A DNA stretch of 64,000 nt from Candidatus Omnitrophota bacterium (GTDB lineage: Bacteria > Omnitrophota > Gorgyraeia > Gygaellales > Profunditerraquicolaceae). The notes under the pieces are model-generated. The model had not been told where the DNA came from, searched no databases, and worked only from the letters and a program-made list of their open reading frames with translations. The stretch is from the NCBI GenBank assembly GCA_025453395.1, contig JALOQK010000001.1:10244-74243 (forward strand), given 5' to 3'. Numbering within the stretch: position 1 is the first letter of the stretch; each line of letters starts with the position of its first letter. The position numbers and the translations under genes are program-made. Positions 1,195-33,508 of the stretch are shown here, in pieces.

Positions 1195-2184
1195 CTACCT
1201 TATGATCTTCCATTCTTTTTTCGCTGAAATCATTTTACGGCATAATGTTATATCTTGCTCGGTAAATAAAGAAACCTCTTTTCGCGCAGGAAAATCTTCC
1301 AACATTATTCCCAGCGCCTCGGCTGCCCAATACCTTGCAGGCAAAAGTATTGTATCGTCTGACTCGTACAGCGGCCCCTCATCACTATTTAAGTACTTCG
1401 CCAAAACAGGAATTACCTCTGGTTGGCGTATATATTGCAGGCGGCTAAATAAGACGCTATATCTCATCATCTTGTCTTTCTCCTGCTCTACTAATTGGAT
1501 ACACCGTATTATATCCTCTTTGCTTCCCATGCGCGCCCGTGCCCTGCGCGCAGCCCAGCTAGTTGTTCCGTACCAACTACCGGCATGTTCTTTTTTCTCA
1601 TATTGACGTTCGTCTTCAAGAAGATTTTTCAATAACGACAGTATCGATTTTATATCTGCCACGCCGCAAATAAGTATAATATTATGAAAATCTCTACTGG
1701 AATCTGATTTCGCGTAATATGATAAAAAATCATTCTCCAGCCACTTCTTTGTATCTCTAGAAAAATCTGATGCGGTGAAATCTAAAAGACACTTAGCTAC
1801 ATGCGGTTGCACAAGAGGAGAAGAATCTGCCAGCGATCTGGTAAGAATACCAACGATACGGATGCGATCAGCCTTGAGGGGAGCGTTATTTACCCCTATT
1901 TGCCACAGCATTGCACAAGAAATATACCTGACGTGTTCTGAATCATCATGCATGTATCGTTCAAGGAAAGGCAATAAATTTACACCATAAGTTTCTACTA
2001 ATTGATTGGTCCTTATTGTAACTGCTTCTCTGTTCTTGGTCTGACTCATCAAAGTTGCAAGCGAGCTTTCCATTTCCGATAAAGAAGTTTCTTTTTCTTG
2101 GGAATAGCCAGAAGCCAGAATAACTGTTCCTGTGAAAACGAAACTGAATAGCAAATAAATCATTACTCTGAATTTTATCGACAT
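1195..2184 (-). CDS. secreted HEAT/PBS-lyase-like repeat protein
   Basis: 329 aa; hydrophobic N-terminal signal/anchor; repeated D-x-x-VR/VQ...A-x-x-L helical motifs typical of HEAT_2 repeats. Confidence 0.45.
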   Translation of the reverse strand: MSIKFRVMIYLLFSFVFTGTVILASGYSQEKETSLSEMESSLATLMSQTKNREAVTIRTNQLVETYGVNLLPFLERYMHDDSEHVRYISCAMLWQIGVNNAPLKADRIRIVGILTRSLADSSPLVQPHVAKCLLDFTASDFSRDTKKWLENDFLSYYAKSDSSRDFHNIILICGVADIKSILSLLKNLLEDERQYEKKEHAGSWYGTTSWAARRARARMGSKEDIIRCIQLVEQEKDKMMRYSVLFSRLQYIRQPEVIPVLAKYLNSDEGPLYESDDTILLPARYWAAEALGIMLEDFPARKEVSLFTEQDITLCRKMISAKKEWKIIR

Positions 2185-2363
2185 AAGTATCTAGTCTTAA
2201 AAGAATCACCCATTTTTTGCTCTCACAATAAAGGGGACGATTCTATTTATTCCATTATCAGGAATCATAGAAACGCCCCCTTTTGGTTGTGCTCATCACA
2301 GAAACTATATTATGGCTCGACAGAGCCCTTATTTAAGGTACGCCGCCGCATTCGCTGGGCTTA

Positions 2364-2406
2364 CTCCGGCTCGTCAGAGCCTCGCCGGAGTCCGTTTTTC
2401 TTTTTT
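2364..2406 (+). terminator. plus-strand hairpin plus T-run (ctccggc...gccggag tccgtttttctttttt)
   Basis: 7-bp GC-rich stem followed by a T-tract. No plus-strand ORF lies upstream, which suggests a small plus-strand transcript within the repeat. Confidence 0.35.
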
Positions 2407-2436
2407 AAAGGTACAGCGGCGCATTCGTTAGGATTA

Positions 2437-2479
2437 CTCCGGCTCGTCAGAGCCTCGCCGGAGTCCGTTTTTCTTTTTC
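2437..2479 (+). terminator. second copy of the plus-strand hairpin plus T-run
   Basis: Exact tandem duplicate of the 2364-2406 structure. Confidence 0.35.
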
Positions 2480-2487
2480 TATATGTT

Positions 2488-2517
2488 GCGAGAAATTATC
2501 TCCAGATAATTTCTCGC
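2488..2517. repeat. perfect 14-bp-arm palindrome (gcgagaaattatct cc agataatttctcgc) 16 nt past the tRNA-Ser(GCT) 3' end
   Basis: Perfect inverted repeat. It is nested inside a longer imperfect IR (ccgtttttctt...aagaaaaacgg). A near-identical palindrome lies at 32372-32399 beside tRNA-Ser(CGA). Confidence 0.6.
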
Positions 2518-2533
2518 ATTAAGGAAGAAAAAC

Positions 2534-2621
2534 GGAGAGGCTGGGATTTGAACCCAGGGACCCAGTTTCCCAGGTCAACTCATTAGCAGTGAGTTGCTTT
2601 CGACCACTCAGCCACCTCTCC
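2534..2621 (-). tRNA. tRNA-Ser (anticodon GCT)
   Basis: Manual fold. Acceptor GGAGAGG/CCTCTCC+G; D-arm GTGGCTGAGTGGTCGAAAGC; anticodon stem-loop ACTCA-CTGCTAA-TGAGT gives GCT; long variable arm; T-loop GGTTCAAATCC. Confidence 0.8.
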
Positions 2622-2623
2622 TT

Positions 2624-2744
2624 GAGCACAAAAATCTTTTATCCAGCGAAACTTCGCGAAGCGAAGTAAGAGCACAAAAATCTTTTATCCAGCGAAACTT
2701 CGCGAAGCGAAGTAAGAGCACAAAAATCTTTTATCTATCTCACC
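2624..2744. repeat. 2.6 copies of a 46-bp tandem repeat directly 5' of tRNA-Ser(GCT)
   Basis: Unit gagcacaaaaatcttttatccagcgaaacttcgcgaagcgaagtaa. Copies abut with no spacers. The same unit, with one substitution, is repeated at 32506-32684 upstream of tRNA-Ser(CGA). Confidence 0.7.
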
Positions 2745-2775
2745 TTGGAATAAAGGATTGCCAAGTGCGCATTTG

Positions 2776-3528
2776 CTATGCAGACTTTACCAAAATATCC
2801 AATTCCTGCTGGAATGATTGCTCGCTAATGCGCGCGTCAAAGAACATCGTAGCCTGAGCATTCAACCAGGTATCTTTAATCCTTCCGATATCCCGCTTTT
2901 GATGAATACCAGAATCATCAAAGTTAGCGTCTGAATACAGCAAAATCGAAGTATCCTGATTCTTGGATTTCTTTAGCGCAAGCATAAACTGTCCCGCGTC
3001 CTGCGTTACAAGATTAAGATGGACAATAAGCAGATTATATTTAAATTTATTGACCTCTTCCCAGAAAAGCCTCTCTTCATTAACCGGGCTGATCACGTAA
3101 TTATATTTATGCAAAGCAAGCGATACCCGGTCCACCAAAGAGGTATTGTCTGTCAATACCAGCGCCTTGGTCTGAAGTAAAGACGTAACCCGATTCACCA
3201 ACATCCCCGCATCACAAGGTTTGTCCAGAAAATCATCAACCCCAAAAACCTCAAAAGTATCCTTCATCCTGTTCTTAGCTGTAAGCATGACAACCTTGAT
3301 CCCGCGGGTAGCCAGATCCTGGCGGATTTTCTTAAACAAAGTAAACCCGTCCATTACCGGCATAATATGGTCCAAAATTATCAAATCCGGCTTCTGTCTC
3401 TGGATCTTATTCCAGGCCTCTTGTCCATCTGAAGCAACATCAACAGAAAACCCCTCAGACTCAAAACGAGCCTTTAGCACTTTCTGCACATCAACTTCAT
3501 CATCAACAACCATTATTTTCTTATTCAT
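2776..3528 (-). CDS. response regulator: receiver domain plus C-terminal receiver-like domain lacking the phospho-Asp
   Basis: N-terminal MNKKIMVVDDE...DLIILDHIMP...VVMLTA...DKP receiver. The C-terminal half aligns with the C-terminal domain of the 5896-7026 product (KALVLTD.../...LLIVHLN...) and has no Asp at the phosphorylation site. ATG at 3528 is preferred over the upstream extension. Confidence 0.7.
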   Translation of the reverse strand: MNKKIMVVDDEVDVQKVLKARFESEGFSVDVASDGQEAWNKIQRQKPDLIILDHIMPVMDGFTLFKKIRQDLATRGIKVVMLTAKNRMKDTFEVFGVDDFLDKPCDAGMLVNRVTSLLQTKALVLTDNTSLVDRVSLALHKYNYVISPVNEERLFWEEVNKFKYNLLIVHLNLVTQDAGQFMLALKKSKNQDTSILLYSDANFDDSGIHQKRDIGRIKDTWLNAQATMFFDARISEQSFQQELDILVKSA

Positions 3529-3548
3529 TTGACCTTTCCTTTTAGAAA

Positions 3549-4013
3549 TTATTGATTTTGCGCGCGCTTCTTGCGGAAGAATTCTGTCAAAAGACCAGCG
3601 CAATCTTCTTTTAAGACGCCGCCTTGCGCCTTTATGCGATGATTCAATTTTTTACTTGCGGCGATATTAAACACCGAGCCGCAGGCGCCGGTTTTAGGGT
3701 CGGCCGCGCCAAAAAATACATTTTTTACCCTGGCTAAGACAAGCGCTCCGGCGCACATACTGCAAGGTTCAATTGTAACATATAGCGCTGCGCCATTCAA
3801 CCACTTCTGCTGCAGATAATTTGTTGCGCTTGTTAAAGCGATCATCTCGGCGTGCGCGGTAGGATCTTTGAGGCGCTCAACCTGGTTATGTGCGCGGGAA
3901 ATTATCTTCCCCTCATGCACAATCACGCAGCCAACCGGAACCTCATCCTCTTCAAAGGCTTCTCTGGCCTCTTTCAAGGCCTCAAGCATGTAAAATTCAT
4001 CTAATTTCTTCAT
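3549..4013 (-). CDS. tadA: tRNA-specific adenosine-34 deaminase
   Basis: 154 aa; HAEMIAL...PCSMCAGAL zinc-binding CDA signature. Confidence 0.85.
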   Translation of the reverse strand: MKKLDEFYMLEALKEAREAFEEDEVPVGCVIVHEGKIISRAHNQVERLKDPTAHAEMIALTSATNYLQQKWLNGAALYVTIEPCSMCAGALVLARVKNVFFGAADPKTGACGSVFNIAASKKLNHRIKAQGGVLKEDCAGLLTEFFRKKRAQNQ

Positions 4014-4199
4014 GAAAGCTAAAAATTAAAAGCGTAAAACGAAAAACCACATCGTAAAATTCAAAATTTTTAATTTTAAATTATAGCTTTGCGTTTTTAG
4101 TTTTGCGCTTTTAGCTTTAAAAGCGCGCCCAGCCCTTCGACTCGTCCGCCAAAATGCGGCGTCCTCGCTCAGGACGGGCGTTGACTTGCAACAAATATA

Positions 4200-4273
4200 C
4201 GCGCCCAGCAGGAGTTGAACCTGCAACAACTTGCTCCGTAGGCAAGTGCTCTATCCAATTGAGCTATGGGCGC
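4200..4273 (-). tRNA. tRNA-Arg (anticodon ACG)
   Basis: Manual fold. Acceptor GCGCCCA/TGGGCGC+G; anticodon stem-loop CTTGC-CTACGGA-GCAAG gives ACG; T-loop GGTTCAACTCC. Confidence 0.8.
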
Positions 4274-4318
4274 ATAGTAAATGCGCGCTTGAGCCTGCCG
4301 GCAGGCAGGCAATACCGC
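4274..4318 (-). promoter_or_regulatory. conserved 5' leader/promoter element shared by both tRNA-Arg genes
   Basis: atagtaaatgcgcgcttgagcctgccggcaggcaggcaataccgc recurs at 48549-48590 with 2-3 changes. It contains the 14-bp palindrome gcctgccggcaggc and a gcgcat/atgcgc inverted repeat overlapping the tRNA 5' end. Confidence 0.4.
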
Positions 4319-4463
4319 ATAAGCGCAAGGTGCGCAAAATTTGTATGGTCGCACAAAAGAGTTTTTATTATAACCTATTTTATCGCTTATTCAAGGAGAT
4401 TGTTTTATTGCTACCCGGAATTGTTTCATAATCTTATGCGCTGCATTGGTTTAGCTAAAGCGT

Positions 4464-4712
4464 CTACTCTTTTATTTCCTCCAGTTCCTTGGCGCGCTGG
4501 GCCTGGATGCCTTCAATCTTGCTCTTGGTGTCATTAACAATGGATTTATAACTTGTGGTGCTTATGCCCTGCTCGTTAAGGGCTTTTTGAGTTTGCGTAT
4601 CGGTAATAACCGAGCCCTTCTTAAAATATTTATTCATCAGCTGAAAGTATAAAAACAAAACTATAACCGTAACAATCAATATCTCTATTAAAGCAAAACC
4701 TTTTTTAAGCAT
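4464..4712 (-). CDS. prepilin-type N-terminal cleavage/methylation domain protein (short type IV pilin or pseudopilin)
   Basis: MLKKG|FALIEILIV: Gly(-1), Phe(+1), Glu(+5) and a hydrophobic helix; 82 aa. Confidence 0.7.
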   Translation of the reverse strand: MLKKGFALIEILIVTVIVLFLYFQLMNKYFKKGSVITDTQTQKALNEQGISTTSYKSIVNDTKSKIEGIQAQRAKELEEIKE

Positions 4713-4720
4713 CCTGCCTC

Positions 4721-5896
4721 CTACTTATTATCTGCGATCTGCTTAATGTAATTTATCGGAACGGCAAAATTTACATTTTGCGAGAAAAGAAACGAAGCTA
4801 AAGTCGTAATCCCCACTACTTCCCCGTATTCATTCAAGACCGGCCCGCCGCTAGACCCCGGAGAAACCGGCGCGGTCATCTGCAAAAGTTTCATTTTATC
4901 ATTTGAGCGTATCGCGCTTATCACCCCTGTTGAAACCGACCGCTCAAAACCTGAAGGATTTCCCAAAACCACAATATCCTGACCGTTCACCAGTCGGTCT
5001 GAATCTCCGGCAAAAAGAACCGGTAGATTTTCCGCCTTGATCTTAATCAAAGCTATGTCCAGATCCGGTACCCCCTTGATAAAATACGCCTCTTTATAGG
5101 TCTTATCCCCGATTTTTACTTCGACTTGCGCCGCCGATTCTACCACGTGGAAATTGGTCGCGATCACTCCGTCGCCTGAAACCACAAACCCGCTTCCCAA
5201 ACCAAGCCGCGTTCCGTATTTATTCTTAGTGGTAATCGTGGCCACCGCAGGCATGCATTTCTGAGAGATGTCTGTGGAACTCATCTTTTTTCTTTTTCTG
5301 CGGCTTAAAAAACTTAATTTAAAATTACCTATCTCCTGCATGGAGGCGCGCTTAAGCAAAACCCCCTTCTTGGGTTTATTCACCATGGCAATAATACTTT
5401 CAAACGGATTTCGCGCCTGGTCTTTATTGTCATCTTTATAACACTGCAGGGTGTAGGCGGTAAATAACGAAATAAAAATAATGCTTAAGATTACTTTGGT
5501 TACCTTCTTGAAACGCGCGCCCGCCCAAAGATTGATCATCCCCAATGGCGAGAGAGGCGGAATAAGGGTAAAGAAAACAAACCGCTTGCGAAAATACCAT
5601 TTCAAGTTCTTTTCATTCTTATCGCGCAGGAGGTTTGAAACAATCACCATCACAAACCACGATACGATCAGACTGCCGTGAAAAATAACTATTCCTAAAA
5701 GATTGTTCCTGCCTGCCGCATATCCCAACATGGCATTGCCCCATAAAATAAGCAAAAACCCCAGAATAAGCGGATGGTCCCCCAGGTTAGCGATAAACCA
5801 GTTTTTCGCCTTTTCGGGAGTAGCCCTTTTTATCTTGCGCCGGGAAACCCGAAGATACCTTCTGATTTTATTCTTTTTCTTTTTCTTTTTCATCAT
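4721..5896 (-). CDS. membrane-anchored trypsin-like (S1C/HtrA-type) serine protease with poly-Lys N-terminus
   Basis: The C-terminal domain has GSGFVV...IATNFHVV...GNPSG...GSSGGPV catalytic signatures. The N-terminal half has several TM helices. The start is probably the MMKKKKKK Met pair, overlapping the upstream stop. Confidence 0.7.
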   Translation of the reverse strand: MMKKKKKKNKIRRYLRVSRRKIKRATPEKAKNWFIANLGDHPLILGFLLILWGNAMLGYAAGRNNLLGIVIFHGSLIVSWFVMVIVSNLLRDKNEKNLKWYFRKRFVFFTLIPPLSPLGMINLWAGARFKKVTKVILSIIFISLFTAYTLQCYKDDNKDQARNPFESIIAMVNKPKKGVLLKRASMQEIGNFKLSFLSRRKRKKMSSTDISQKCMPAVATITTKNKYGTRLGLGSGFVVSGDGVIATNFHVVESAAQVEVKIGDKTYKEAYFIKGVPDLDIALIKIKAENLPVLFAGDSDRLVNGQDIVVLGNPSGFERSVSTGVISAIRSNDKMKLLQMTAPVSPGSSGGPVLNEYGEVVGITTLASFLFSQNVNFAVPINYIKQIADNK

Positions 5897-7026
5897 TAGA
5901 GCAGAGTTGGTATCTGTCCGAGGCACTTCTCCACCATCCCCGGGAAATCCTCCTCGGCGACCCTTAAGTCAAAAAAATTATCCGCCTTTGCTTCCAGCCA
6001 CTTGTTAGAGATCTCGCGCAGCACAACAATGTTTCCTGTTTCTGTCCCGGGGGTCTTAGAATTAGAATAAATAATAACCGGGGTATCCTTATTTTTATCT
6101 TTTTTTATAAGCGCTATAAACTGCGCGGGCTCATAATTAACCACAGATGGCACATAAACTACAATGAATTTATATTTAGAAAGCGCTAGATTCTCAAACA
6201 TTTCCTTTTCAGTTTTTACCAAAACCGCTTTACAGCCTCTATCCCAAATATCCTGGCCTATTTTCTTAGCTAATCCGTCGGCATCACAAAGCACAAGCGC
6301 CTTGGGCAAAAGAAGCTCTTTGGCAAGGTCCACAAGCTCTCCCGCGTCAAAGGGTTTAGGCATAAACGCGTCTGCCCCTGCCATTTCAAAAGAATCTTTT
6401 AACGGCCCCCGGGCGGTTAAAACAATTACCGGGATACTTGAGGCGTAGGGGTCGCTTTTAATTATCTTAAAAAATTCATACCCATTCATTACCGGCATCA
6501 TAAAATCAAGTATGATCAGGTCCGGAGATTCAGATTTTACTTTCTCAAGGCCCTCTTGGCCGTTGGTGGCGGTTACCACCGCATAGCGGTTCGCTCTAAA
6601 ACGCACCTCCAGGACTTTTAACAGATCTGCTTCATCATCAATAATAAGCACCTTTTTCCCGCGGATCTCTCCTAAAAACTTACGCGCCTTGCCCGCGACT
6701 ATCCCCGGAAGAAAAGGCTTCCTAAAAGAATCATTGATCTGCCCCTCTTCAAAAAGCTCCATCATGCTGCCGTACTCACTGGCGACAATAATCGGAATAT
6801 CCTTAGTTTCATGGTCTTTTTTAAGTTTGGCCGCGAGCTGATAACCATTAATCTTAGGCAAAATCACGTCCATTATAATCAGATTCGGAACTTGCGTCTT
6901 AGCTTTCATAAACCCGTCTTCACCGTCAAAGGCCACAACCACATCATAACGCTGGGCCTCAAGCTCTTTGCGCATCAACTCCAAGACTTCCACATCATCA
7001 TCAACAATGAGTATCTTCTTTGCCAT
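5896..7026 (-). CDS. tandem-receiver response regulator (REC-REC) with C-terminal pseudo-receiver domain
   Basis: Two canonical receivers (ILIVDDD...LIIMDVILP...K; VLIIDDE...LIILDFMMP...K). The third CheY-like domain has the Asp replaced (KFIVVYVP). Confidence 0.75.
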   Translation of the reverse strand: MAKKILIVDDDVEVLELMRKELEAQRYDVVVAFDGEDGFMKAKTQVPNLIIMDVILPKINGYQLAAKLKKDHETKDIPIIVASEYGSMMELFEEGQINDSFRKPFLPGIVAGKARKFLGEIRGKKVLIIDDEADLLKVLEVRFRANRYAVVTATNGQEGLEKVKSESPDLIILDFMMPVMNGYEFFKIIKSDPYASSIPVIVLTARGPLKDSFEMAGADAFMPKPFDAGELVDLAKELLLPKALVLCDADGLAKKIGQDIWDRGCKAVLVKTEKEMFENLALSKYKFIVVYVPSVVNYEPAQFIALIKKDKNKDTPVIIYSNSKTPGTETGNIVVLREISNKWLEAKADNFFDLRVAEEDFPGMVEKCLGQIPTLL

Positions 7027-7031
7027 AATAC

Positions 7032-7406
7032 TTATTCACTTATCCTTTTTTGTATTTCACCTAAAAGATCATTTGGCTCATAAGGCTTGGCAATAAAAAA
7101 ATTACCTCCGGATTCCCTGCCGATATGCTCCTCGTCATTTTTCGTCACCAGGCAAGTCAGGAATATAACCGGAATATTCTTAGTTCCAGGATCCTGCTTT
7201 AATGCTGCCGCCACGTCCGCGCCGCTAATATCCGGCATCATAAGGTCCAAAAGGATTAAATCCGGTTTTTCTTTCTTGGCCAAGAATATAGCGTCCTCTC
7301 CATTATTGGCCTTTAGTACCGCATAGCCGGTTTTTGAAAGCCTTTGATCCAAAACTTTCAAGACATTCTGCTCGTCATCAACTACAAGTATTCTTTTCTG
7401 TGCCAT
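7032..7406 (-). CDS. single-domain response regulator (CheY-like)
   Basis: MAQKRILVVDDE...DLILLDLMMP...IFLT...KP; ATG at 7404-7406. Confidence 0.8.
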   Translation of the reverse strand: MAQKRILVVDDEQNVLKVLDQRLSKTGYAVLKANNGEDAIFLAKKEKPDLILLDLMMPDISGADVAAALKQDPGTKNIPVIFLTCLVTKNDEEHIGRESGGNFFIAKPYEPNDLLGEIQKRISE

Positions 7407-7422
7407 AAAATTATCCCCTTTC

Positions 7423-7791
7423 TTAACTAAGAAATTTTTTCGCCTTATTAACCAATCCTGCAGAATCAAACGGCTTAAGCAAGTAATCATCCGCCTTAAC
7501 CTGTTTTATCTTCTCATCAAGCTGATCCACGCTTGCGGTAAAAATTACCACCTTTATATTCTTTAACTTCTCATCGCTTTTAATTTGCTGACAAACATTG
7601 TACCCGTCTATTATAGGAAGGCGCAAATCCAGAAACATCATGTCTGGAGCAGTCTGCCGGACAAAATCCAAAGCCTGCTGGCCATTAATAGCGGTAAAAA
7701 CTTCGTAGCCGGCCATTTTCAAACGCACTATCGCTACCTTTAACACATCTGGCTCATCATCAACAACAAGTATCCTCTTAGGCATGGTCAT
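7423..7791 (-). CDS. single-domain response regulator (CheY-like)
   Basis: RILVVDDEPD...DMMFLDLRLP...VVIFTAS...LLKPFD. Confidence 0.8.
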   Translation of the reverse strand: MTMPKRILVVDDEPDVLKVAIVRLKMAGYEVFTAINGQQALDFVRQTAPDMMFLDLRLPIIDGYNVCQQIKSDEKLKNIKVVIFTASVDQLDEKIKQVKADDYLLKPFDSAGLVNKAKKFLS

Positions 7792-10553
7792 ACCCTCCGC
7801 TCTACAATAGGCAACAAGAAAGAAAATGTTGCGCCCTGTCCATATGTTGACTCTACCCAGATTTTCCCTCTATGGATCTCAATTATTTTTTTAGCGATTG
7901 CCAAACCTAGCCCCGTTCCGCCAACCTTACGCTCATTGGGAGATTCAAGCTGGCTGAACATTTGAAATAATCTATCTTTGTCTTCTTCTTTTATCCCCGG
8001 GCCGGTATCGCGCACAGATACTATCTCAACATTGCCATGCCTGCCGGTACAAACAGTGATCCCCCCTTGTTGGGTGAACTTCAAAGCGTTATTCATCAGA
8101 TTAGTCAATACCTGAATAATTTTATCCCGGTCAATTTTTATATCCGGCAGAGCTTCTTCCAAACTCATCTCTAAAGTCAAATTCTTAGCTTCTATTAAAG
8201 GCCGCATAGCCTGAACAACTTCTGATACAAGAGAATTAAGGTTTCCCTCTTTGATCTTAAAGACCATCGCCCCGGCGTCTAATTTCTGAAAATCCAATAC
8301 CTCATTAATAAGCCGCGCTAATCTGTCCATATTTTTACGGGCAATATCCAAGAATTCTTTCTGCTCGTCGTTAAGAGGCCCCAGCGTTAGATCCTGCACA
8401 AGCGCGATGCCTTCCTTTATCGCGGTCAAGGGAGTCCTTAACTCATGCGAAACAACTGAAATGAAATCCGACTTTACATGCAAAGCCTTTTCAAGGTCCT
8501 GGCTGTATTTCTCCATTTTATCCTTAGCCTCTGTTAGGTCTTCAAGGATATTAAGGGTGGCTTCCTGGACACGGCTTAGTTCTTTGGTGCGCTCTTCAAC
8601 TTTCTCCTCGAGATGTCTTGAGAAATCCTCTATTCTGTGTTTAGCAACAATAAGCGCGTCCTGCTGCTTTTTAAGCTGAACAATCATTTCCCTGAAGGCT
8701 TCTGCGAATTGTTCAATTTCATCTCCGGTCTTAATGTCTATCGGATAATCCCATTCTCCGGCGATGATCCTCTCTGCGGCTATATTCAGCTTCCTGATCG
8801 GCACAGAGAACCGCATCCCGATTTTTAAACTCAAGAATATTGCGATAGAGATTACAACAAGCATAAGCAATACCATCCCGATTATCAAATTTCCTAATGA
8901 AGCAAATAATTCTTCAATATCCTGCAAAACGCAGACATACCAAATTACTCCGTTTTTACGCAAGATCTGATTGTCTATCCTGTAAATGGAATTGAAAGAG
9001 CCGCGGCGTTTGCCAGTATCTTCTATCCTCCCGGACATCAAATCACTTCTACTTAAAGCCTTAAGTATGTCCTTTTCGCTAAACAACTGCGCGCTAAAAG
9101 GTTTTATATTTTCATGAAAGATTACGTTTCCTTTTCCATCAACTAAAGCCGCATGCCCGGTTATCCCAGCGCGATATTTCTTAAGTGGAGAGAAAAACAG
9201 CCCTATCTCAATATATTCTTTAGCCGCTCCAAGAGCCTGCCCTGCCTGATCAAAGACCGGCAAAGCTATAGGAATACTCAAGGCGTTGCTTGACTGATCC
9301 ATCTCGATATCACCGACAAAAATATCACCTTTACCTTGTGAATAGGCCTTCTGCCACCATAGCTCATCCGCCTGATAAAAATCAGTTGTTTTACGAGAGG
9401 CAGCAACCAATCCACCATAACGGTCTGTCAGAAATATCTCGGCCACTTCCCTATCCACATCTGCCAACTCTTTCAAGTCTAAACTTACCGGACTTTCCAA
9501 AAGACTCAATAATTCAGGCGCATCAGAAGCCCATAAAACATCTTTTTTGAGCATGTCTTCTACAATAGCTTCCGAAGCAACAGAAGAATATTGGGCATTC
9601 TGCTCAATAACCGCCTGCCTCCACCGGTTCTTTCCCAAATGTACCTGAAACTCATATATCTTGTTGTCGATCATATGGCCTATGGAATAAGAAAGCGCCT
9701 TGGCAACTTCTAACTGTTTACTTTTAATATCTCTAACCATAAATTGATACATCCACGAAATAATGATCACGCAAGTCAACAAAACAGAAATAACCGCCAC
9801 CGAAGAAAAAACAATAGAGAACCTTCCGGTAATACCGCGGCGTATCTCTATGCGCTTTTTATCTCCATAAAAATAAACTCCAGTTAAGAAAAAGAAACTT
9901 AAGGCCAGGATGATCGCGCAAATCATCCGGTAAAACTGGACAGGCACTCCAGTTAAATCATTAAAATTAGGATAATTGATAAAAGAGGCAAAAATAAAAT
10001 CTGCTTTGGGCACAACAATTCCGCTTAATACCCCATAAGCAAAGAAAGTTACGGAAGCAACCCACGTAGAAACTAAAACAGGCCTGGGGACTTGCTTCAT
10101 ATCTGCTTGAGAGTAAATAGAATATAGCCCTATGGCAGTCATCCATGTACCGGGCAGACAAAGGAAATAACGCGCGATTATTCCGGAAATAAGAAAGTCT
10201 TTTGTTAAAAAATACCCGAATAGCCATACAGCTACTACCGGCACCCATAGGTATTTCAAATATCTTAAATTATTATTTGCTTTGAAAATGACCCGAACCC
10301 CGAAAATAACCAAAAAAATAAAAGATAATGGAAGAAGAATTGCCCCCACAGTTTTAAGAATTGCCACATCAAACGGCTTGCCTATTAATATCAAAAGGTC
10401 AACCCACTCATTTATCCCGTGGATGAACCCGAATACTCCGATCATCCATAAATTATCGGATAAACCAAACAGGTCATTTTTCTTGGGCATCAACGAGATA
10501 ACAAGGCCCATCAGTAAAAATGCCAAACCGTAAAAGAAAAAGATTACAAGCAT
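7788..10553 (-). CDS. sensor histidine kinase: N-terminal ~8-TM domain, extracytoplasmic sensor region, HAMP, HisKA, HATPase_c
   Basis: 921 aa. H-box SHELRTPLTAI; N-box NLMNNALKFT; G1 DTGPGI; G2 GGTGLGLAI. A HAMP-like segment follows the last TM. No receiver domain. Confidence 0.85.
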   Translation of the reverse strand: MLVIFFFYGLAFLLMGLVISLMPKKNDLFGLSDNLWMIGVFGFIHGINEWVDLLILIGKPFDVAILKTVGAILLPLSFIFLVIFGVRVIFKANNNLRYLKYLWVPVVAVWLFGYFLTKDFLISGIIARYFLCLPGTWMTAIGLYSIYSQADMKQVPRPVLVSTWVASVTFFAYGVLSGIVVPKADFIFASFINYPNFNDLTGVPVQFYRMICAIILALSFFFLTGVYFYGDKKRIEIRRGITGRFSIVFSSVAVISVLLTCVIIISWMYQFMVRDIKSKQLEVAKALSYSIGHMIDNKIYEFQVHLGKNRWRQAVIEQNAQYSSVASEAIVEDMLKKDVLWASDAPELLSLLESPVSLDLKELADVDREVAEIFLTDRYGGLVAASRKTTDFYQADELWWQKAYSQGKGDIFVGDIEMDQSSNALSIPIALPVFDQAGQALGAAKEYIEIGLFFSPLKKYRAGITGHAALVDGKGNVIFHENIKPFSAQLFSEKDILKALSRSDLMSGRIEDTGKRRGSFNSIYRIDNQILRKNGVIWYVCVLQDIEELFASLGNLIIGMVLLMLVVISIAIFLSLKIGMRFSVPIRKLNIAAERIIAGEWDYPIDIKTGDEIEQFAEAFREMIVQLKKQQDALIVAKHRIEDFSRHLEEKVEERTKELSRVQEATLNILEDLTEAKDKMEKYSQDLEKALHVKSDFISVVSHELRTPLTAIKEGIALVQDLTLGPLNDEQKEFLDIARKNMDRLARLINEVLDFQKLDAGAMVFKIKEGNLNSLVSEVVQAMRPLIEAKNLTLEMSLEEALPDIKIDRDKIIQVLTNLMNNALKFTQQGGITVCTGRHGNVEIVSVRDTGPGIKEEDKDRLFQMFSQLESPNERKVGGTGLGLAIAKKIIEIHRGKIWVESTYGQGATFSFLLPIVERRV

Positions 10554-10560
10554 TTATCCA

Positions 10561-11085
10561 CTACCTTTGTTTTAACTGTGATTCTAGTTGGACAATTTGA
10601 GCTTTAAGTTCTTTCATCTTCAATTCCCTGTCCACGGTAATCCTTTGAAAACGCTCTAAGGCCTCTATCCTTTTGTGTAGCTCATCCTCTATTTTCTTGC
10701 GCTCGCTTATATCCTTAGCAACGTGCACAACTCCAGCATATTCATTATTTTCATCAAAAATGGGAGATGTAGTCACTAGCAGAGGAAAACCTATTGCCGG
10801 GTCATTAACTTCTTCTACATGCGCAAAATGATCAGCGTTAGTTTTCTCTAAGGGACATAAATGCCAAGGGCTATTAGATTTATGCATCACTTCGAAGCAT
10901 TTCATTCCTACAATCTGATCATAAGTTTTCTGCAAAAGATCCAAAGCCGCTTTATTGGCCTTGACTATTGTATGGTTCTTATCAATTATTAAGATCGTGT
11001 CTGAAATAGCGTTAAAGGTCCTGTCCCATGCGTCATGGCTTTTTCTTAAACGATCTTCCAATCCCCTGCGCTCTAGGTCATCCAT
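10561..11085 (-). CDS. PAS-domain protein with C-terminal coiled coil
   Basis: 174 aa; PAS fold pattern (FNAISDTILIIDKNHTIVKANKAAL...AGVVHVAKDISERK). Conserved Cys/His residues (CFEVMH...HLCP) may bind a cofactor. Confidence 0.6.
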   Translation of the reverse strand: MDDLERRGLEDRLRKSHDAWDRTFNAISDTILIIDKNHTIVKANKAALDLLQKTYDQIVGMKCFEVMHKSNSPWHLCPLEKTNADHFAHVEEVNDPAIGFPLLVTTSPIFDENNEYAGVVHVAKDISERKKIEDELHKRIEALERFQRITVDRELKMKELKAQIVQLESQLKQR

Positions 11086-11086
11086 C

Positions 11087-13195
11087 TTATGCCTCTTTCC
11101 TTCTTAAAAGCATCTTTACACGCGCCAAGATTTTATCCGCATCAAAAGGCTTAGTAATATAATCATCTGCTCCGAAATCAAGCCCGGCGATTTCGCTTTC
11201 CTTATCCTGGCGCGCGGTCAAAATTATTACTGGAACAGAAGCAGTCTGAAGACTGGAACGCAATTTCTTCACCGCTTCAAAACCGTTTACCTTAGGCATT
11301 GTTACATCAGAAATAATTAAATCCGGCTTTTGCTTGTACGCTAACTCCACAAGCTCGCCCCCGTCGCGAGCCATGTCCACTTCGTATCCGGCAGCCAAGA
11401 GCCTTCTTTGCAAGACCTGCAAAATATCTTCTTCATCATCAGCAATCAAAATCTTAAAGACCTGCCCGGTTTTCTTGGATTTCTGCGACAACTGCTCCTC
11501 TTGGCTTATTCCGACTACCTTGATTACTTCTTCTAAAGTCGTAACCCCATCAGCTACTTTCTGCATCCCGGATTTTAACAAAGGCACCATACCGCTATTT
11601 TTTGCCTCCTGAAACAGGCTGTCCTCATTGACTTTCTGACTTATTAACTGTTTTAACCTATCATTGATAATAACTAACTCAAATATTCCGGTGCGGCCCA
11701 AATAACCGGAAAAAGCGCATTTTTCACATCCCTTGCCCCTATAAAATTTCGTGATGTTTAATTCCTGAATATAAGGCATTAATTTTTCCTTGATATCAGC
11801 AAGCGGCGCATCTTCGGTTTTACAATGAGGACAGATAATCCTGATCAAACGCTGTGCGATGATTATATTTAACGATGAAGCTATGATATACGGCTGCAGG
11901 CCTATATCTAAAAGCCGGGTCACAGTAGCTATGGCGCTATTAGTGTGCACTGTAGAAAAAACCTGATGGCCGGTCAATGCCGAACGAAAGGCGATATCCG
12001 CGGTATCGCGGTCGCGGATCTCTCCGACCATAATCACATTAGGATCTTGGCGCAGGATATTCCTTAGTCCATTGGCAAAAGTGACATCCTTGGCAAGATT
12101 AACCTGCATTTGATTGACCCCGTCAATAAGGTACTCAATGGGATCTTCTATGGTAATAATATTCTTGGCCTCGGTCTTGACAAAATTCAAGGCCGCGTAA
12201 ATAGTCGTGGTCTTTCCAGAGCCTGTCGGCCCAGTGACTAAATTCATTCCTTGCGGTTTCTTAAGCGTTTCTTTTAACATCTGAACTTCTCTTGTGGAAA
12301 GCCCAATTTGATCTAAAGGTTTTCTTGCTTCCTGCGGATCCAATATCCTGATCGCGATAGACTCTCCGTAAAAAGCAGGCAAAATCGAAACCCTAAGATC
12401 GATCTGTCTATTACCTAAAGTAACCTTGATCCTACCGTCTTGGGGCTTGCGGCTCTCCGCAATATCAAGATGCGCGAGGATCTTGATCCTGGCAGATAAC
12501 GACAAATGAAAATTAATCGGGATCTCAAGTATATTCCTCAAGTCGCCATCCACGCGATAGCGAATAATAGAAATCTTTTCTTTAGGCTCTATGTGGATAT
12601 CTGAGGCGCGCGCCTTGATGGCGTCGGATAAAATAATATTAGCAAGTCTTATTGCCGGAGAATTCTCGTATTTTACAGACACATCAGAATAATCTTCAGG
12701 AACACTGTCCTGAATAAGCTGCAGCTGCTCGGATTCATGAAAATTTTTCAATATGTCATATACCGAATCATCCGAATTATAATGCGTGTCTATTAATTTT
12801 GTTATTTGACTTCTAGCAGCAAAAACAAGCTGCAATTTAACTGCGGGAACGGCCATTTTTATGTCATCGATAGCCAGCACATCCTGCGGGTCGCTTATTG
12901 CCAAGGCTAAATTATCATTTTCTTTGCGCAAAGGAAAAACCCCGTGCCTGCGGGCAATCGCATAGGGAAGAAGCTTTGTTGCGGCTGGATCGATTTTTTC
13001 CTGGGAAATATCTATTATCGGAAGCTTAAAAAATCTCGATGATGCGGCAAGGATATTTTCTTCGCTTATAAAACCCATCTCCACTAATAATTCCTGTATG
13101 GGTTTCTTAGCGCCGATCTGCTTGGTCTTAGCGTCGTTTAATTGACTAGCGGTGATAAGATTTTCGTTGAGCAAGAATTCCGCTAAATTGGGCAT
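11087..13195 (-). CDS. GspE/PilB-family secretion ATPase with GspE_N-like N-domain and fused C-terminal receiver domain
   Basis: 702 aa. N-terminal GspE_N-like region; Walker A GPTGSGKTTT; Asp/His boxes; tetracysteine CPHCK...CEKCAFSG. The last ~120 aa form a canonical receiver (ILIADDEED...LIISDVTMP...ILTARQD...KPFD). Confidence 0.8.
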   Translation of the reverse strand: MPNLAEFLLNENLITASQLNDAKTKQIGAKKPIQELLVEMGFISEENILAASSRFFKLPIIDISQEKIDPAATKLLPYAIARRHGVFPLRKENDNLALAISDPQDVLAIDDIKMAVPAVKLQLVFAARSQITKLIDTHYNSDDSVYDILKNFHESEQLQLIQDSVPEDYSDVSVKYENSPAIRLANIILSDAIKARASDIHIEPKEKISIIRYRVDGDLRNILEIPINFHLSLSARIKILAHLDIAESRKPQDGRIKVTLGNRQIDLRVSILPAFYGESIAIRILDPQEARKPLDQIGLSTREVQMLKETLKKPQGMNLVTGPTGSGKTTTIYAALNFVKTEAKNIITIEDPIEYLIDGVNQMQVNLAKDVTFANGLRNILRQDPNVIMVGEIRDRDTADIAFRSALTGHQVFSTVHTNSAIATVTRLLDIGLQPYIIASSLNIIIAQRLIRIICPHCKTEDAPLADIKEKLMPYIQELNITKFYRGKGCEKCAFSGYLGRTGIFELVIINDRLKQLISQKVNEDSLFQEAKNSGMVPLLKSGMQKVADGVTTLEEVIKVVGISQEEQLSQKSKKTGQVFKILIADDEEDILQVLQRRLLAAGYEVDMARDGGELVELAYKQKPDLIISDVTMPKVNGFEAVKKLRSSLQTASVPVIILTARQDKESEIAGLDFGADDYITKPFDADKILARVKMLLRRKEA

Positions 13196-13196
13196 A

Positions 13197-13571
13197 CTAT
13201 GCGGTATTTTTACCTAAAACTTCCCTTATAATGCCAAGAAGCGATTCCCAATCATAAGGTTTTTCAACATAAACCTCTGCGCCTTCTTGTTTGGCGATAT
13301 CCTTGTATTGCGGATCAGACATACCGGATAATATAACAACCGGGATACTCATCGTCTGCGAAGAGAGCTTAAGATTTTTTAAGACAGATATCCCACCGCC
13401 TGAAGGGATCATAAGGTCCAGAATGATCAAATCCGGCCTTTCTTTAATGCTGGAAGAAAGCCCTTGATAAGCATCCAAGGCTGCCAAAACTTGGAAGCCC
13501 GCAGCGTGCAGCCTTTTGGATAAAACAGCATTTACATCAACTTCATCTTCAATGATCAGGATTTTAGCCAT
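13197..13571 (-). CDS. single-domain response regulator (CheY-like)
   Basis: MAKILIIEDE...DLIILDLMIP...VVILSG...EKPYD; stop 2 nt before the GspE-receiver start. Confidence 0.8.
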   Translation of the reverse strand: MAKILIIEDEVDVNAVLSKRLHAAGFQVLAALDAYQGLSSSIKERPDLIILDLMIPSGGGISVLKNLKLSSQTMSIPVVILSGMSDPQYKDIAKQEGAEVYVEKPYDWESLLGIIREVLGKNTA

Positions 13572-13635: not shown

Positions 13636-14499
13636 TTACCTAGAAAATTTCCTCTTACGAACAACCCCACTAGCGCGTTTCTGCCACGGCGGCCTGTTGC
13701 TTGTTGTGCCTTCGCGCTTTACCCATGGCTTGCTTGCTGGAGCGCCTGCACTTTCGCTTCTTTGCCACGGCCTGCGCGCGCCCTCTTTCTTTTGCCACGG
13801 CTTAACCGGGCCTTCGCGTTTCTGCCAAAGGCCGGTTTTATCTTCGGATTTCTGCCAAGGCGGGCGGCTTGTTGCGCCTTCGCGTTTTTGCCACGGGGGC
13901 CTGTTGCTTGTTGTGCCTTCGCGTTTTTGCCACGGGGGCCTGTTGCTTGTTGTGCCTTCGCGTTTTTGCCACGGCCGCGCCTGTCCTTCAGGCGGCTTTT
14001 CTCCTCGATTTTTCTCCCACGGTTTAGAATATGGCGCCTTCTTGCGCCAACGCATGGGATTTTCTTTAAATTTCCTTTCGGGCATAGGTCCGGTAATTCC
14101 TGATTCGGCCCGGCGCATCATAAAACTGCGGGTGCGCCTGCCTTTCTTATATTCACCTGTTCTTTCAAAAGTAAACGCCTTAGGATGCAACTCTTTATGC
14201 TCTGGGCGTTGGTATTCGTGATGCGGCTTCTTTTCTTTCGGAACTTCTCTTTCCGGCTTCTTAGGCAATGCCGGCATGACATTTATGGCTCTTCCTAAAA
14301 TTTCTTTTCCGTTTAACGCCTCAATTGCCCTGCGCGCCTCTTCGTCGTCGGGCATCTCCACAAAACCAAATCCCCGCGAGTGCTTGCCTTTTTTGTCCAT
14401 CACAATCACAATGGAAGAAACTTTTCCATGCGCCATAAATTCCTGATAGACATCTGTCTCTTTCGCGTCAAATGATAAATTCCCTACAAAAATATTCAT
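13636..14499 (-). CDS. RRM-type RNA-binding protein with basic C-terminal tail of PWQKREG(TTSNR) tandem repeats
   Basis: N-terminal RNP-2 (IFVGNL) and RNP-1 (RGFGFVEM) motifs. The tail carries about 9 degenerate copies of R-P-P-W-Q-K-R-E-G-T-T-S-N. Confidence 0.75.
   Translation of the reverse strand: MNIFVGNLSFDAKETDVYQEFMAHGKVSSIVIVMDKKGKHSRGFGFVEMPDDEEARRAIEALNGKEILGRAINVMPALPKKPEREVPKEKKPHHEYQRPEHKELHPKAFTFERTGEYKKGRRTRSFMMRRAESGITGPMPERKFKENPMRWRKKAPYSKPWEKNRGEKPPEGQARPWQKREGTTSNRPPWQKREGTTSNRPPWQKREGATSRPPWQKSEDKTGLWQKREGPVKPWQKKEGARRPWQRSESAGAPASKPWVKREGTTSNRPPWQKRASGVVRKRKFSR
13877..13973. repeat. 39-bp exact tandem repeat (2.5 copies) inside the RRM gene tail
   Basis: ccttcgcgtttttgccacgggggcctgttgcttgttgtg occurs twice exactly and once partially. 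It encodes the PWQKREGTTSNRP units. Confidence 0.8.
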
Positions 14500-29494: not shown

Positions 29495-29529
29495 CCGTAA
29501 ATTTTTTCTTTGTCAGAAAAAATTTACGG
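29495..29529. repeat. perfect 15-bp-arm palindrome (ccgtaaattttttct ttgtc agaaaaaatttacgg) overlapping the tRNA-Ser(GGA) 3' end
   Basis: Perfect inverted repeat. Its right arm ends in the CGG that begins the tRNA 3' acceptor strand. Confidence 0.6.
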
Positions 29530-29612
29530 AGAGGGAGGGATTCGAACCCTCGGAGCCTTGCGACTCACGTGTTCTCCAGACACGCCCGTTACGACCGCTT
29601 CGGTACCTCTCC
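29527..29612 (-). tRNA. tRNA-Ser (anticodon GGA)
   Basis: Manual fold. Acceptor GGAGAGG/CCTCTCC+G; anticodon stem-loop CGTGT-CTGGAGA-ACACG gives GGA; long variable arm; T-loop GGTTCGAATCC. It directly abuts the glgP stop. Confidence 0.8.
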
Positions 29613-31622: not shown

Positions 31623-31700
31623 GTTTATACTAAACTCCTTTTTAACATTATAACACGTTATCTTATTTACGCTATATACTTAACTATGCAAAGGCTAAAA

Positions 31701-31787
31701 CGGTGGGGCAGGGATTCGAACCCTGGGTGGACTTGCGCCCACAACAGTTTTCAAGACTGCCGCTTTCAACCGCTCAGCCACCCCACC
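31701..31787 (-). tRNA. tRNA-Ser (anticodon TGA)
   Basis: Manual fold. Acceptor GGTGGGG/CCCCACC+G; D-arm GTGGCTGAGCGGTTGAAAGC; anticodon stem-loop GCAGT-CTTGAAA-ACTGT gives TGA; long variable arm; T-loop GGTTCGAATCC. Confidence 0.75.
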
Positions 31788-31803
31788 AGAATTTCCTATA
31801 ATC

Positions 31804-32416: not shown

Positions 32417-32504
32417 CGGAGAGGGTGAGATTCGAACTCACGTGAGCCTTACGGCCCAACCGCTTTTCGAGAGCGGCCCGTTATGACCACTTCGGTACCT
32501 CTCC
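32417..32504 (-). tRNA. tRNA-Ser (anticodon CGA)
   Basis: Manual fold. Acceptor GGAGAGG/CCTCTCC+G; anticodon stem-loop CCGCT-CTCGAAA-AGCGG gives CGA; long variable arm; T-loop AGTTCGAATCT. Confidence 0.8.
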
Positions 32505-32815: not shown

Positions 32816-33508
32816 TTATTTTCTAAATAGGAAAAGCTGTTCGTAGGCCCTCTGGAAAATAAACCCTGCCCGGTCAAGAAAATTCCTGCAGAAAATCACG
32901 AAATCAAAACCCTTTAAAATAACGCTAAGGCACAAAGAAAGAAGAAAGATATTTATGATATAGATAAGCGAAAACCCAAAAAGGTAATTGGCTTTTAAGG
33001 CATCCTCTTTCTTGGTGCGCAAAGTCTTGGCGGAATAAACAAGATGCAAGCTCAAAGAGAATGCCGCCCAGAAAATAAAATACCCCAACAATCCTTCAAA
33101 CGCCCAGGATAAACAAGCATATAAAACAAGAAGAAGGATTGTATAAACCGGTAAAAGGTACGGCGCGATCCTCACCAGGGGCCTGACAAAAGTAAATATC
33201 CATTCCAGTATTTTCTGCCCGCGGGTGTAAATTTTTGCTGGTTCCCAGACAAAAAGATAAATTAATAAAAAGGCGGCTATCCCCCACCAGAAAATATCCT
33301 GGATTGCGGGATCAACTTGCATAAACTGGCTGTAGAAAGCGCTGGATATGGAATAAACAAAAGGAAGAAGCAATATTCCAAGAATAAATTTGACAAAAAT
33401 AAAAAGCCACTTTGCCCAACCGGAAAGCTTACTTTTAATTTCCGAAGCCATTGGCGAAGGTTCCGGGCCTTCCGCAGGTATATTTTTAAAAAATTCTTTC
33501 TCTGCCAT
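32816..33508 (-). CDS. polytopic membrane protein (hypothetical)
   Basis: 230 aa, ~6 TM. The true start is probably the internal Met (MASEIKSK, ~33451), because the long form overlaps the serS 3' end. Confidence 0.4.

Follow-up and report, generated by a model that had tools for sequence, protein, structure and literature searches.

A PilB-class assembly ATPase with a C-terminal receiver domain in an Omnitrophota operon: a candidate type IV filament motor doubling as a response regulator

The window studied here, a 64,000-nucleotide stretch of contig JALOQK010000001.1 from a Candidatus Omnitrophota bacterium, contains a compact operon in which an assembly ATPase of the PilB class carries a phosphorylatable receiver (REC) domain at its own C-terminus. 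Here we explore this fusion, the protein family to which it belongs and the genes that accompany it. The operon comprises nine tightly packed genes, all on the minus strand and transcribed from 13571 to 4464 according to the open reading frame (ORF) calls, and independent Joint Genome Institute (JGI) gene calls on the same DNA agree with all nine ORFs. Pfam searches confirmed the domains of the products in order of transcription: REC; MshEN, T2SSE and REC; PAS; kinase; REC; REC; REC-REC; and protease. The nine-gene list of a first-pass annotation, made from the sequence alone, therefore stands over its whole span, as does the co-orientation of the genes; its range of 0-10 nucleotides (nt) for the spacing is exceeded, since one of the distances obtained with JGI starts (+1, +1, +7, -4, +16, +5, -1 and +8 nt) is 16 nt. 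The operon encodes six intact receivers, one pseudo-receiver and one kinase. Acidic pocket, phospho-Asp, Thr/Ser and Lys are present in all six receivers, in agreement with the earlier count of six phosphorylatable receivers and one kinase. No Pfam family of CheA, CheW or methyl-accepting chemotaxis proteins (MCPs) occurs in the gene tables of the window or of the related loci. The operon, rich in receivers and built around a fusion of ATPase and receiver, is thereby confirmed not to be a chemotaxis layout, as had been proposed.

The second gene (11087-13195) encodes the fusion, a protein of 702 amino acids (aa) consisting of an MshEN domain, an N2D/CTD ATPase, a linker and a REC domain, with Pfam scores of 76 bits for MshEN, 443 for T2SSE and 101 for Response_reg. 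The ATPase core (aa 177-560; 11516-12667), a region of high confidence in an AlphaFold2 (AF2) model, has the Walker A motif GPTGSGKT and the tetracysteine C455, C458, C490 and C493. Walker A, the four cysteines of the zinc motif and many residues of the catalytic core are invariant in a 35-member family alignment with an overall identity of about 50%, a level of divergence at which such invariance argues for a working ATPase. The fused receiver (aa 581-702; 11090-11455) shows the same constraint: D587, D630, T660 and K682 are invariant in 35 of 35 aligned family members. In the AF2 model, computed on the family alignment, three confident modules are found, with pLDDT (predicted local distance difference test) values below 50 at 163-176 and 564-575 only; the receiver is well folded and the low-confidence stretch of aa 564-575 is the linker that precedes it. 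The closest solved structure is Geobacter PilB 5ZFR (E 9e-134, residues 3-561), and the other best solved relatives over residues 3-561 are PilB of M. xanthus and PilF of Thermus. None of the PDB matches is a solved chain that spans both the ATPase and the receiver. The N-terminal MshEN region aligns in full with PilB, while GspE models begin at residue 74.

The fusion belongs to a sizeable family. An identical ATPase sequence is recorded for a Candidatus Omnitrophica MAG. Among the 120 best-scoring homologue clusters 110 have the MshEN-T2SSE-REC architecture, at 48-60% identity, such that the family comprises at least 110 sequence clusters, which is a lower bound. Where an organism is named, the hosts are Omnitrophota, Auribacterota (Ca. 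Ancaeobacter), Firestonebacteria and Elusimicrobia (Elusimicrobiaceae), and a genome scan with the window ATPase as single query retrieved three full-length fusion loci. A neighbour-joining tree built on the ATPase core groups 52 sampled REC fusions with their PilZ-associated sisters in one clade of 57. One sister, P0117 (locus L173, 10001-12025), has a C-terminal PilZ domain where the window protein has REC, and another, P0115, has stand-alone PilZ genes on its flanks. The ATPases at L166 9977-12163 and L172 8932-12228 belong, together with that of L173, to the same pattern, in which a C-terminal PilZ replaces REC or stand-alone PilZ genes flank the ATPase gene. More distant PilB-like ATPases outside the clade carry C-terminal REC, REC-GAF (L150, L155), zinc-ribbon-REC (L164) or PilZ extensions. 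Signalling domains appear to use the C-terminus of PilB recurrently as a docking site. PilB-like proteins of about 1000 aa were also encountered: the one at L169 4256-7144 has a second, C-terminal T2SSE ATPase domain, and the crowded P-loop domain lists of P0112 and P0118-P0120 may likewise mean a second ATPase domain.

The N-terminal domain of the fusion differs from that of PilBs controlled by cyclic di-GMP (c-di-GMP). Wang et al. described the c-di-GMP motif of MshEN as a tandem of the 24-residue RLGxx(L/V/I)(L/V/I)xxG(L/V/I)(L/V/I)xxxxLxxxLxxQ and gave a relaxed form for searches (PMC5013675). Alignment of the window MshEN domain (aa 1-150; 12746-13195) to the N-domains of Geobacter PilB and MshE shows that both motifs are degenerate. 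The corresponding stretches, NLAEFLLNENLI... and PIQELLVEMGFI..., have NLA and PIQ at the RLG positions, each half fails three positions of the relaxed motif, and the consensus is not matched. The relaxed motif is found in none of about 105 N-terminally complete members of the fusion family, nor in any of nine metagenome ATPases with C-terminal extensions. As a control, at least one match was obtained in 32 of about 95 unfused PilB/GspE-like ORFs, which come from a metagenome scan on Walker-type patterns and are mostly canonical PilBs. This pattern accords with regulatory input having moved from the N-terminus, where it would have been c-di-GMP, to the C-terminus, where it would be REC or, in the sisters, PilZ.

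Nine independent loci of the clade were compared in order to establish which neighbours of the fusion are conserved: the window, L006, L007, L008, L086, L088, L089, L090 and L091. The conserved core consists of a first stand-alone receiver (REC-A), the PilB-REC fusion, a kinase with PAS/dCache sensors and a second receiver (REC-B). REC-A (13197-13571; 124 aa; Pfam Response_reg 71 bits) ends 1 nt before the ATPase gene, and in the window as well as in L086, L088, L089 and L091 the fusion gene is preceded, at a distance of 1-4 nt, by the gene for a stand-alone receiver of 122-125 aa. The best matches of window REC-A are the upstream receivers in that same position in these four loci (50-54% identity), and the five form an orthologous group of 50-59% identity with a common E-D acidic pocket. 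In nine of nine loci the fusion has next to it a HisKA kinase whose sensors are PAS and/or dCache. In the window this is a sensor histidine kinase of 921 aa (7788-10553), for which Pfam and a hydropathy scan indicate about six N-terminal transmembrane (TM) segments, a dCache-like periplasmic region, a further TM segment, HAMP, HisKA and HATPase_c. The dCache_1 match (36.9 bits) is below the 45-bit cutoff, and Pfam at E up to 1 returned nothing useful for the N-terminal membrane region of the kinase or for the N-terminus of the protease described below. The kinase core is 52-58% identical to those of the kinases beside the fusion ATPase in L006, L007 and L008. REC-B (7423-7791; 122 aa; Pfam 87 bits) overlaps the kinase stop by 4 nt, and its orthologues directly follow the kinase in L086, L088, L089, L006 and L007 (44-57% identity). 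The Firestonebacteria locus has the kinase first, then a REC-B-like receiver and the fusion last. The synteny with relatives on which the first-pass annotation had staked its reading is thus retained for ATPase, kinase and receivers, at 50-58% identity across four phyla, but not for the protease and the short prepilin-like protein at the end of the operon.

It could be argued that an ordinary pilB has come to lie by chance among unrelated two-component genes, or that the locus is an anti-phage defence island. Receivers and kinases are abundant in these genomes, and weak domain-level PADLOC matches were obtained for the receivers and the protease. These matches are generic (REC, HATPase and protease domains) and none concerns the ATPase, the PAS protein or the pilin, therefore the defence reading was dropped. 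The recurrence of REC-A, fusion, kinase and REC-B across phyla with orthologous receivers also speaks against mere chance, as do the housekeeping flanks of the operon (carB, hydEFG, [FeFe] hydrogenase, bamA, lpx genes and ribosomal proteins). We find either explanation hardly credible.

Between fusion and kinase the window encodes a PAS-only protein of 174 aa (10561-11085; PAS_9 52 bits) with a C-terminal coiled-coil-like tail. It carries the Cys/His motif KCFEVMH...P..LCP, and PAS domains of this subtype, KC[FY]E(L/V/I)xH...P...CP, adjoin the fusion in four of the loci compared: the window, L006 (~21363), L008 (~8775) and L086 (~12635). The motif suggests that the subtype may be a metal or redox sensor. 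In L086, from Ca. Gygaella obscura, a complete V/A-type ATPase operon (1617-9558) ends 70 nt before REC-A, which recalls the unusual rotary ATPases reported to be co-located with type IVa pilus (T4aP) loci in Omnitrophota (PMC10066038).

Pfam annotation of all called genes and tblastn over the 64-kb window detected no PilC, PilM-Q, secretin, second T2SSE gene or other pilins, which bears out the earlier statement that platform, PilM-Q and secretin genes are lacking in the window. Nor does the window contain gsp genes, and the ATPase, scoring below the GspE cutoff, was not assigned to GspE. PilC, PilM, PilO and secretin were searched in all related loci and were found only in their loci of origin. 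The machine does come into view in three relatives. In L008 a T2SSF platform (Pfam E 3e-56) comes next after the fusion ATPase, then an N_methyl/T2SSG-like pilin, three further prepilin-like ORFs and a PAS kinase; in L006 an N_methyl pilin lies directly upstream of the fusion, in the place of REC-A; and PilM, PilO and a secretin lie 5-10 kb from the PilZ-fused sister P0117. T4aP genes are reported to be near-universal in Omnitrophota (PMC10066038). Given a PilB-class ATPase, the links in L008 and L006, the neighbourhood of P0117 and this distribution, the machine parts missing from the window are most likely encoded elsewhere. The locus had been described as not a standard type IV pilus (T4P), a verdict that we do not uphold: the ATPase is PilB-class from end to end and its relatives occur beside platform, prepilins and a PilM/PilO/secretin cluster.

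We therefore favour, with moderate confidence, the reading that the locus heads the regulation of a type IV filament system, most probably T4aP, in which the PilB-class ATPase is itself a response regulator. A wider reading, according to which a kinase phosphorylates the PilB-fused receiver throughout the clade, so that the pilus motor acts as response regulator and replaces the c-di-GMP input, with PilZ in the same C-terminal slot in the sisters, is put forward tentatively and with rather less confidence than would make it an even call. That clade covers Omnitrophota and neighbouring phyla, ultra-small bacteria that may depend on hosts.

A number of observations weigh against these readings. 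The best curated model for the ATPase, NCBIfam PilB (TIGR02538), gives 588.2 bits, below its equivalog cutoff of 675.65, and GspE (TIGR02533) follows closely with 555.4 bits, below 630.25. Platform, prepilin peptidase, PilM-Q and secretin are absent from the 64-kb window and from within 10 kb of the fusion in seven of the nine loci, leaving L008 and L006 as the only direct links to a pilus machine; moreover, the pilin of L008 has a weak T2SSG match (E 0.0037). A second, canonical PilB encoded outside the window may make the fusion a specialised paralogue. Furthermore, transfer from the kinase to the fused receiver is predicted from adjacency and conserved synteny with a HisKA kinase, and the proposed loss of c-di-GMP binding from motifs only, in related sequences that are not independent data points.

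Part of this evidence could be read in favour of a receiver-gated assembly ATPase that builds another filament, that is, a pseudopilus like that in a type II secretion system (T2SS) or some other non-T4aP filament for secretion or DNA uptake. A T2SS-like pseudopilus would accord with the missed PilB cutoff, the close GspE score and the weak T2SSG match of the L008 pilin. L008 further combines the ATPase, T2SSF and this pilin with three minor-pilin-like ORFs and has no PilT or PilM-Q nearby, and the 82-aa pilin of the window has a weak ComGD match. The full alignment of the MshEN region with PilB and not GspE, the nearest solved relatives (PilB and PilF), the sister ATPase near a T4aP-type PilM/PilO/secretin cluster and the near-universal T4aP of the phylum (PMC10066038) point the other way, and we consider a non-T4aP filament rather unlikely.

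Alternatively, the fusion could be a signalling paralogue, its receiver serving as phosphate sink or scaffold in a branched two-component network while another gene encodes the canonical PilB. The seven of nine fusion loci without machine genes within 10 kb are set among kinases and receivers, and the number of receivers per kinase is unusually high. A paralogue reduced to signalling is difficult to reconcile with the invariance of Walker A, tetracysteine and catalytic-core residues at about 50% identity, or with L008 and L006, which place the fusion with platform and pilins, and we regard it as improbable.

In the favoured reading, a filament motor that is its own response regulator, the kinase would sense an extracytoplasmic ligand via its dCache-like region, and the adjacent PAS protein may contribute a cytoplasmic redox or metal cue. 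The kinase would autophosphorylate and then act as phosphoryl donor for the motor-tethered receiver as well as for the stand-alone ones. Once phosphorylated, the tethered receiver would alter hexamer assembly, ATPase rate or docking to the PilC/PilM platform and thereby gate filament extension, whereas REC-A and REC-B could act as competing sinks or antagonists, as PilG/PilH or PixG/PixH. With the c-di-GMP motif of MshEN lost, the C-terminal add-on, REC here and PilZ in sisters, would supply the regulatory input. In the window the operon has acquired additional receivers, among them the REC-REC-pseudoREC protein and its downstream paralogue described below, together with a membrane-anchored protease of the periplasm and a truncated orphan pilin. 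The first-pass annotation had proposed a phosphorelay that controls the ATPase in extruding or processing a minimal pilin-like substrate. Phosphorelay control is plausible given the invariant D587, D630, T660 and K682; extrusion or processing of the small pilin loses its footing with the absence of that gene elsewhere.

Among solved systems the fusion is closest to PilB itself (Geobacter 5TSG/5ZFR, M. xanthus 3JC8 and Thermus PilF), with which it shares MshEN, the N2D/CTD core, Walker boxes and the tetracysteine zinc motif. It differs in its added phosphorylatable C-terminal receiver, in its degenerate MshEN motif and in that it usually does not adjoin pilC, pilT or pilM-Q. PilG and PilH of the Pseudomonas Pil-Chp system are CheY-like proteins that control the pilus extension motor. 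In the Synechocystis Tax1 system (PixG/PixH), phosphorylated PixG binds PilB1 (PMC11181946), and DrdR, a Xanthomonas protein with tandem receivers, binds both PilB and PilT and increases their ATPase activity (PMC13507683). The paired antagonistic single receivers PilG/PilH and PixG/PixH resemble REC-A and REC-B, and DrdR is a tandem-REC protein with a pseudo-receiver, as is also encoded in the window, although the pseudo-receiver of DrdR is the N-terminal of two domains and that of the window protein the C-terminal of three. Unlike in these trans-acting systems, the receiver is here covalently attached to the motor and the kinase is of the HisKA type rather than a CheA with MCP and CheW. Control by c-di-GMP, either through the MshEN of PilB and MshE or through PilZ-FimX-PilB, is similar in that a small signalling domain on or bound to the assembly ATPase sets its output; it differs in that the predicted input in the window is His-Asp phosphotransfer and that the MshEN domain fails the relaxed consensus (PMC5013675).

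A conceptual parallel is provided by the NtrC/DctD-type regulators (NtrC1, DctD), in which a receiver controls an AAA+ ATPase ring. By analogy, phosphorylation of a receiver that is joined to a P-loop ATPase oligomer could gate assembly or activity of the ring. The analogy is limited by the fact that the window ATPase is of the secretion/PilT class and not an AAA+ sigma-54 activator, that its receiver is C-terminal instead of N-terminal, and that it has no DNA-binding domain.

Extension of type IV pili is known to be controlled by c-di-GMP (MshEN, PilZ/FimX), by trans-acting CheY-like proteins and by phage inhibitors. The literature covered included the MshEN paper, two papers on Omnitrophota genomics and a review from 2024 on how PilB is regulated. 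The review lists no motor with its own receiver (PMC11656802), and the MshEN paper mentions only that MshEN and REC co-occur in some proteins (PMC5013675). We found no description of a receiver-fused PilB or GspE in the open-access literature searched, an earlier description elsewhere being possible; the individual domains are already annotated automatically in databases. The interest of the locus is the conserved four-gene module and not the pair of protease and small pilin, which matter much less because they are confined to the lineage of the window. If the reading holds, the fusion would be the first member of the secretion ATPase superfamily for which direct gating by His-Asp phosphotransfer is shown, and with the response regulator covalently part of PilB no path from signal to motor could be shorter. 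With at least 110 clusters in four poorly known phyla and independent REC, REC-GAF and PilZ fusions elsewhere, the family offers a testable model for phosphorylation gating of a secretion-class hexameric ATPase. It would also provide a handle on how uncultured Omnitrophota decide when pili are to be extended toward hosts or prey: attachment in the predatory or parasitic lifestyles proposed for the phylum has been attributed to T4aP (PMC10066038), hence the module may be a decision point for host contact.

The remaining four genes of the operon, namely a third stand-alone receiver, a REC-REC-pseudoREC protein, the protease and the small pilin, were found in none of the eight other loci. The third receiver (7032-7406; 124 aa by the JGI start; Pfam 86 bits) has no clear orthologue in the relatives, its best matches reaching 37-42% identity. 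The REC-REC-pseudoREC protein (5896-7026) has 376 aa, with two Pfam Response_reg stretches and a third domain that matches the REC profile in hhalign with a probability of 95.5% (E 1.6e-8). In this third domain Tyr replaces the phospho-Asp and the Lys is lost, which agrees with its first description as a pseudo-receiver; Pfam at E up to 1 gave no match to it. This pseudo-receiver subtype lacks a Pfam model. Only four full-length homologue clusters of the protein were found. A paralogue of 250 aa consisting of REC and pseudo-REC (2776-3528, minus strand; Response_reg 108 bits) lies downstream of the operon, beyond a tRNA-Arg gene and a gene for a tadA-like deaminase, and provides a seventh receiver; it is 37% identical to residues 123-361 of the 376-aa protein and both have the motif FFDxRI. 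A homologue of the tandem receivers, P0133 (412 aa, from a JGI contig of 3392 bp), is fused to MshEN in the order REC-REC-MshEN. This Rosetta-stone-type fusion hints that tandem receivers and the PilB N-domain may work together.

The protease (4721-5896; 391 aa; Trypsin_2 110 bits) is a membrane-anchored, HtrA-like serine protease of family S1C that lacks PDZ. Hydropathy indicates three TM segments with the N-terminus inside, which places the protease domain in the periplasm, and the catalytic motifs are readable for His (NFHV), Asp (DLDIAL) and Ser (GSSGGP). With membrane-anchored S1 proteases of the MarP/HtrA type it has in common a TM anchor at the N-terminus and a chymotrypsin-fold domain in the periplasm. 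The window protein differs from MarP, HtrA and DegP in having no PDZ match and in scoring far below the family cutoffs (TIGR02037, 143.6 against 416.2 bits). At least eight full-length relatives are found among the listed clusters at 50% identity.

The last gene (4464-4712) encodes an orphan prepilin-like protein of 82 aa whose class III signal, MLKKG/FALIE with the slash between positions -1 and +1, was read from the sequence together with its Shine-Dalgarno site. The N-terminus MLKKG/FALIEILIVTVIVLFLYF shows a short basic leader, Gly-1, Phe+1, Glu+5 and a hydrophobic alpha1-N; the G-1/F+1/E+5 signature lies 4 residues after Met and is the sole such motif in the six frames of the window. NCBI annotates the product as a prepilin-type domain protein. 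The Pfam N_methyl score of 16.2 bits is below the cutoff of 21.2, therefore the prepilin call of the first-pass annotation is retained on signal, Shine-Dalgarno and NCBI annotation, in a weaker form than was given. AF2 predicts two helices (3-47 and 52-81; mean pLDDT 83) and no globular domain; the protein has no Cys. Among 5.8 billion proteins no homologue is detectable, the search returning only the protein itself. Truncated pilins of the Geobacter PilA-N type likewise have a class III signal and an all-helical body. The 82-aa protein was also considered as an e-pilin, and this reading was dropped: it is not a clear e-pilin since it is an orphan and has 7 aromatics in 77 mature residues (~9%), none of them in the last 28.

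What the protease and the small pilin do can be considered in two ways. They could, as was first suggested, be effector and substrate of a self-contained minimal system in which the ATPase, driven by the phosphorelay, extrudes or processes the 82-aa protein, with the protease as co-effector and no need for platform or secretin. Consistent with this, both show translational coupling to the genes of the receivers (-1 and +8 nt, with a GGAGG Shine-Dalgarno before the pilin start overlapping the protease stop), and the window has neither platform nor secretin. The absence of protease and pilin from eight of eight related loci, the orphan status of the pilin and the platform encoded beside the fusion ATPase in L008 contradict such a system, and we know of no PilB-class ATPase that works without a PilC/GspF platform; we judge it very improbable. 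Protease, small pilin and extra receivers are lineage-specific additions that stand outside the conserved system, and the 82-aa pilin may plausibly serve the same machine as an alternative or minor subunit.

Scans for promoters and terminators yielded counts near the shuffled expectation, and no operon boundary was drawn from them; a perfect TATAAT that precedes REC-A by about 30 nt is suggestive only. Directly upstream of the operon, a gene on the minus strand (13636-14499) encodes an RRM-domain protein with a long C-terminal tail of about eight PWQKREG(T/A)TS(N)RP-like repeats. Downstream, the tRNA-Arg(ACG) gene (4199-4274, minus strand) has its own promoter-like site, TTGAAT-16-TATAAT at 4394-4367, and lies about 185 nt upstream of the tadA-like deaminase gene on the same strand (3549-4013); the tadA deaminase family edits exactly tRNA-Arg(ACG). 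The window also contains four tRNA-Ser genes (2533-2621, 29527-29612, 31700-31788 and 32417-32504) with anticodons GCT, GGA, TGA and CGA, three of which lie within 4 kb of a seryl-tRNA synthetase gene (33486-34754).

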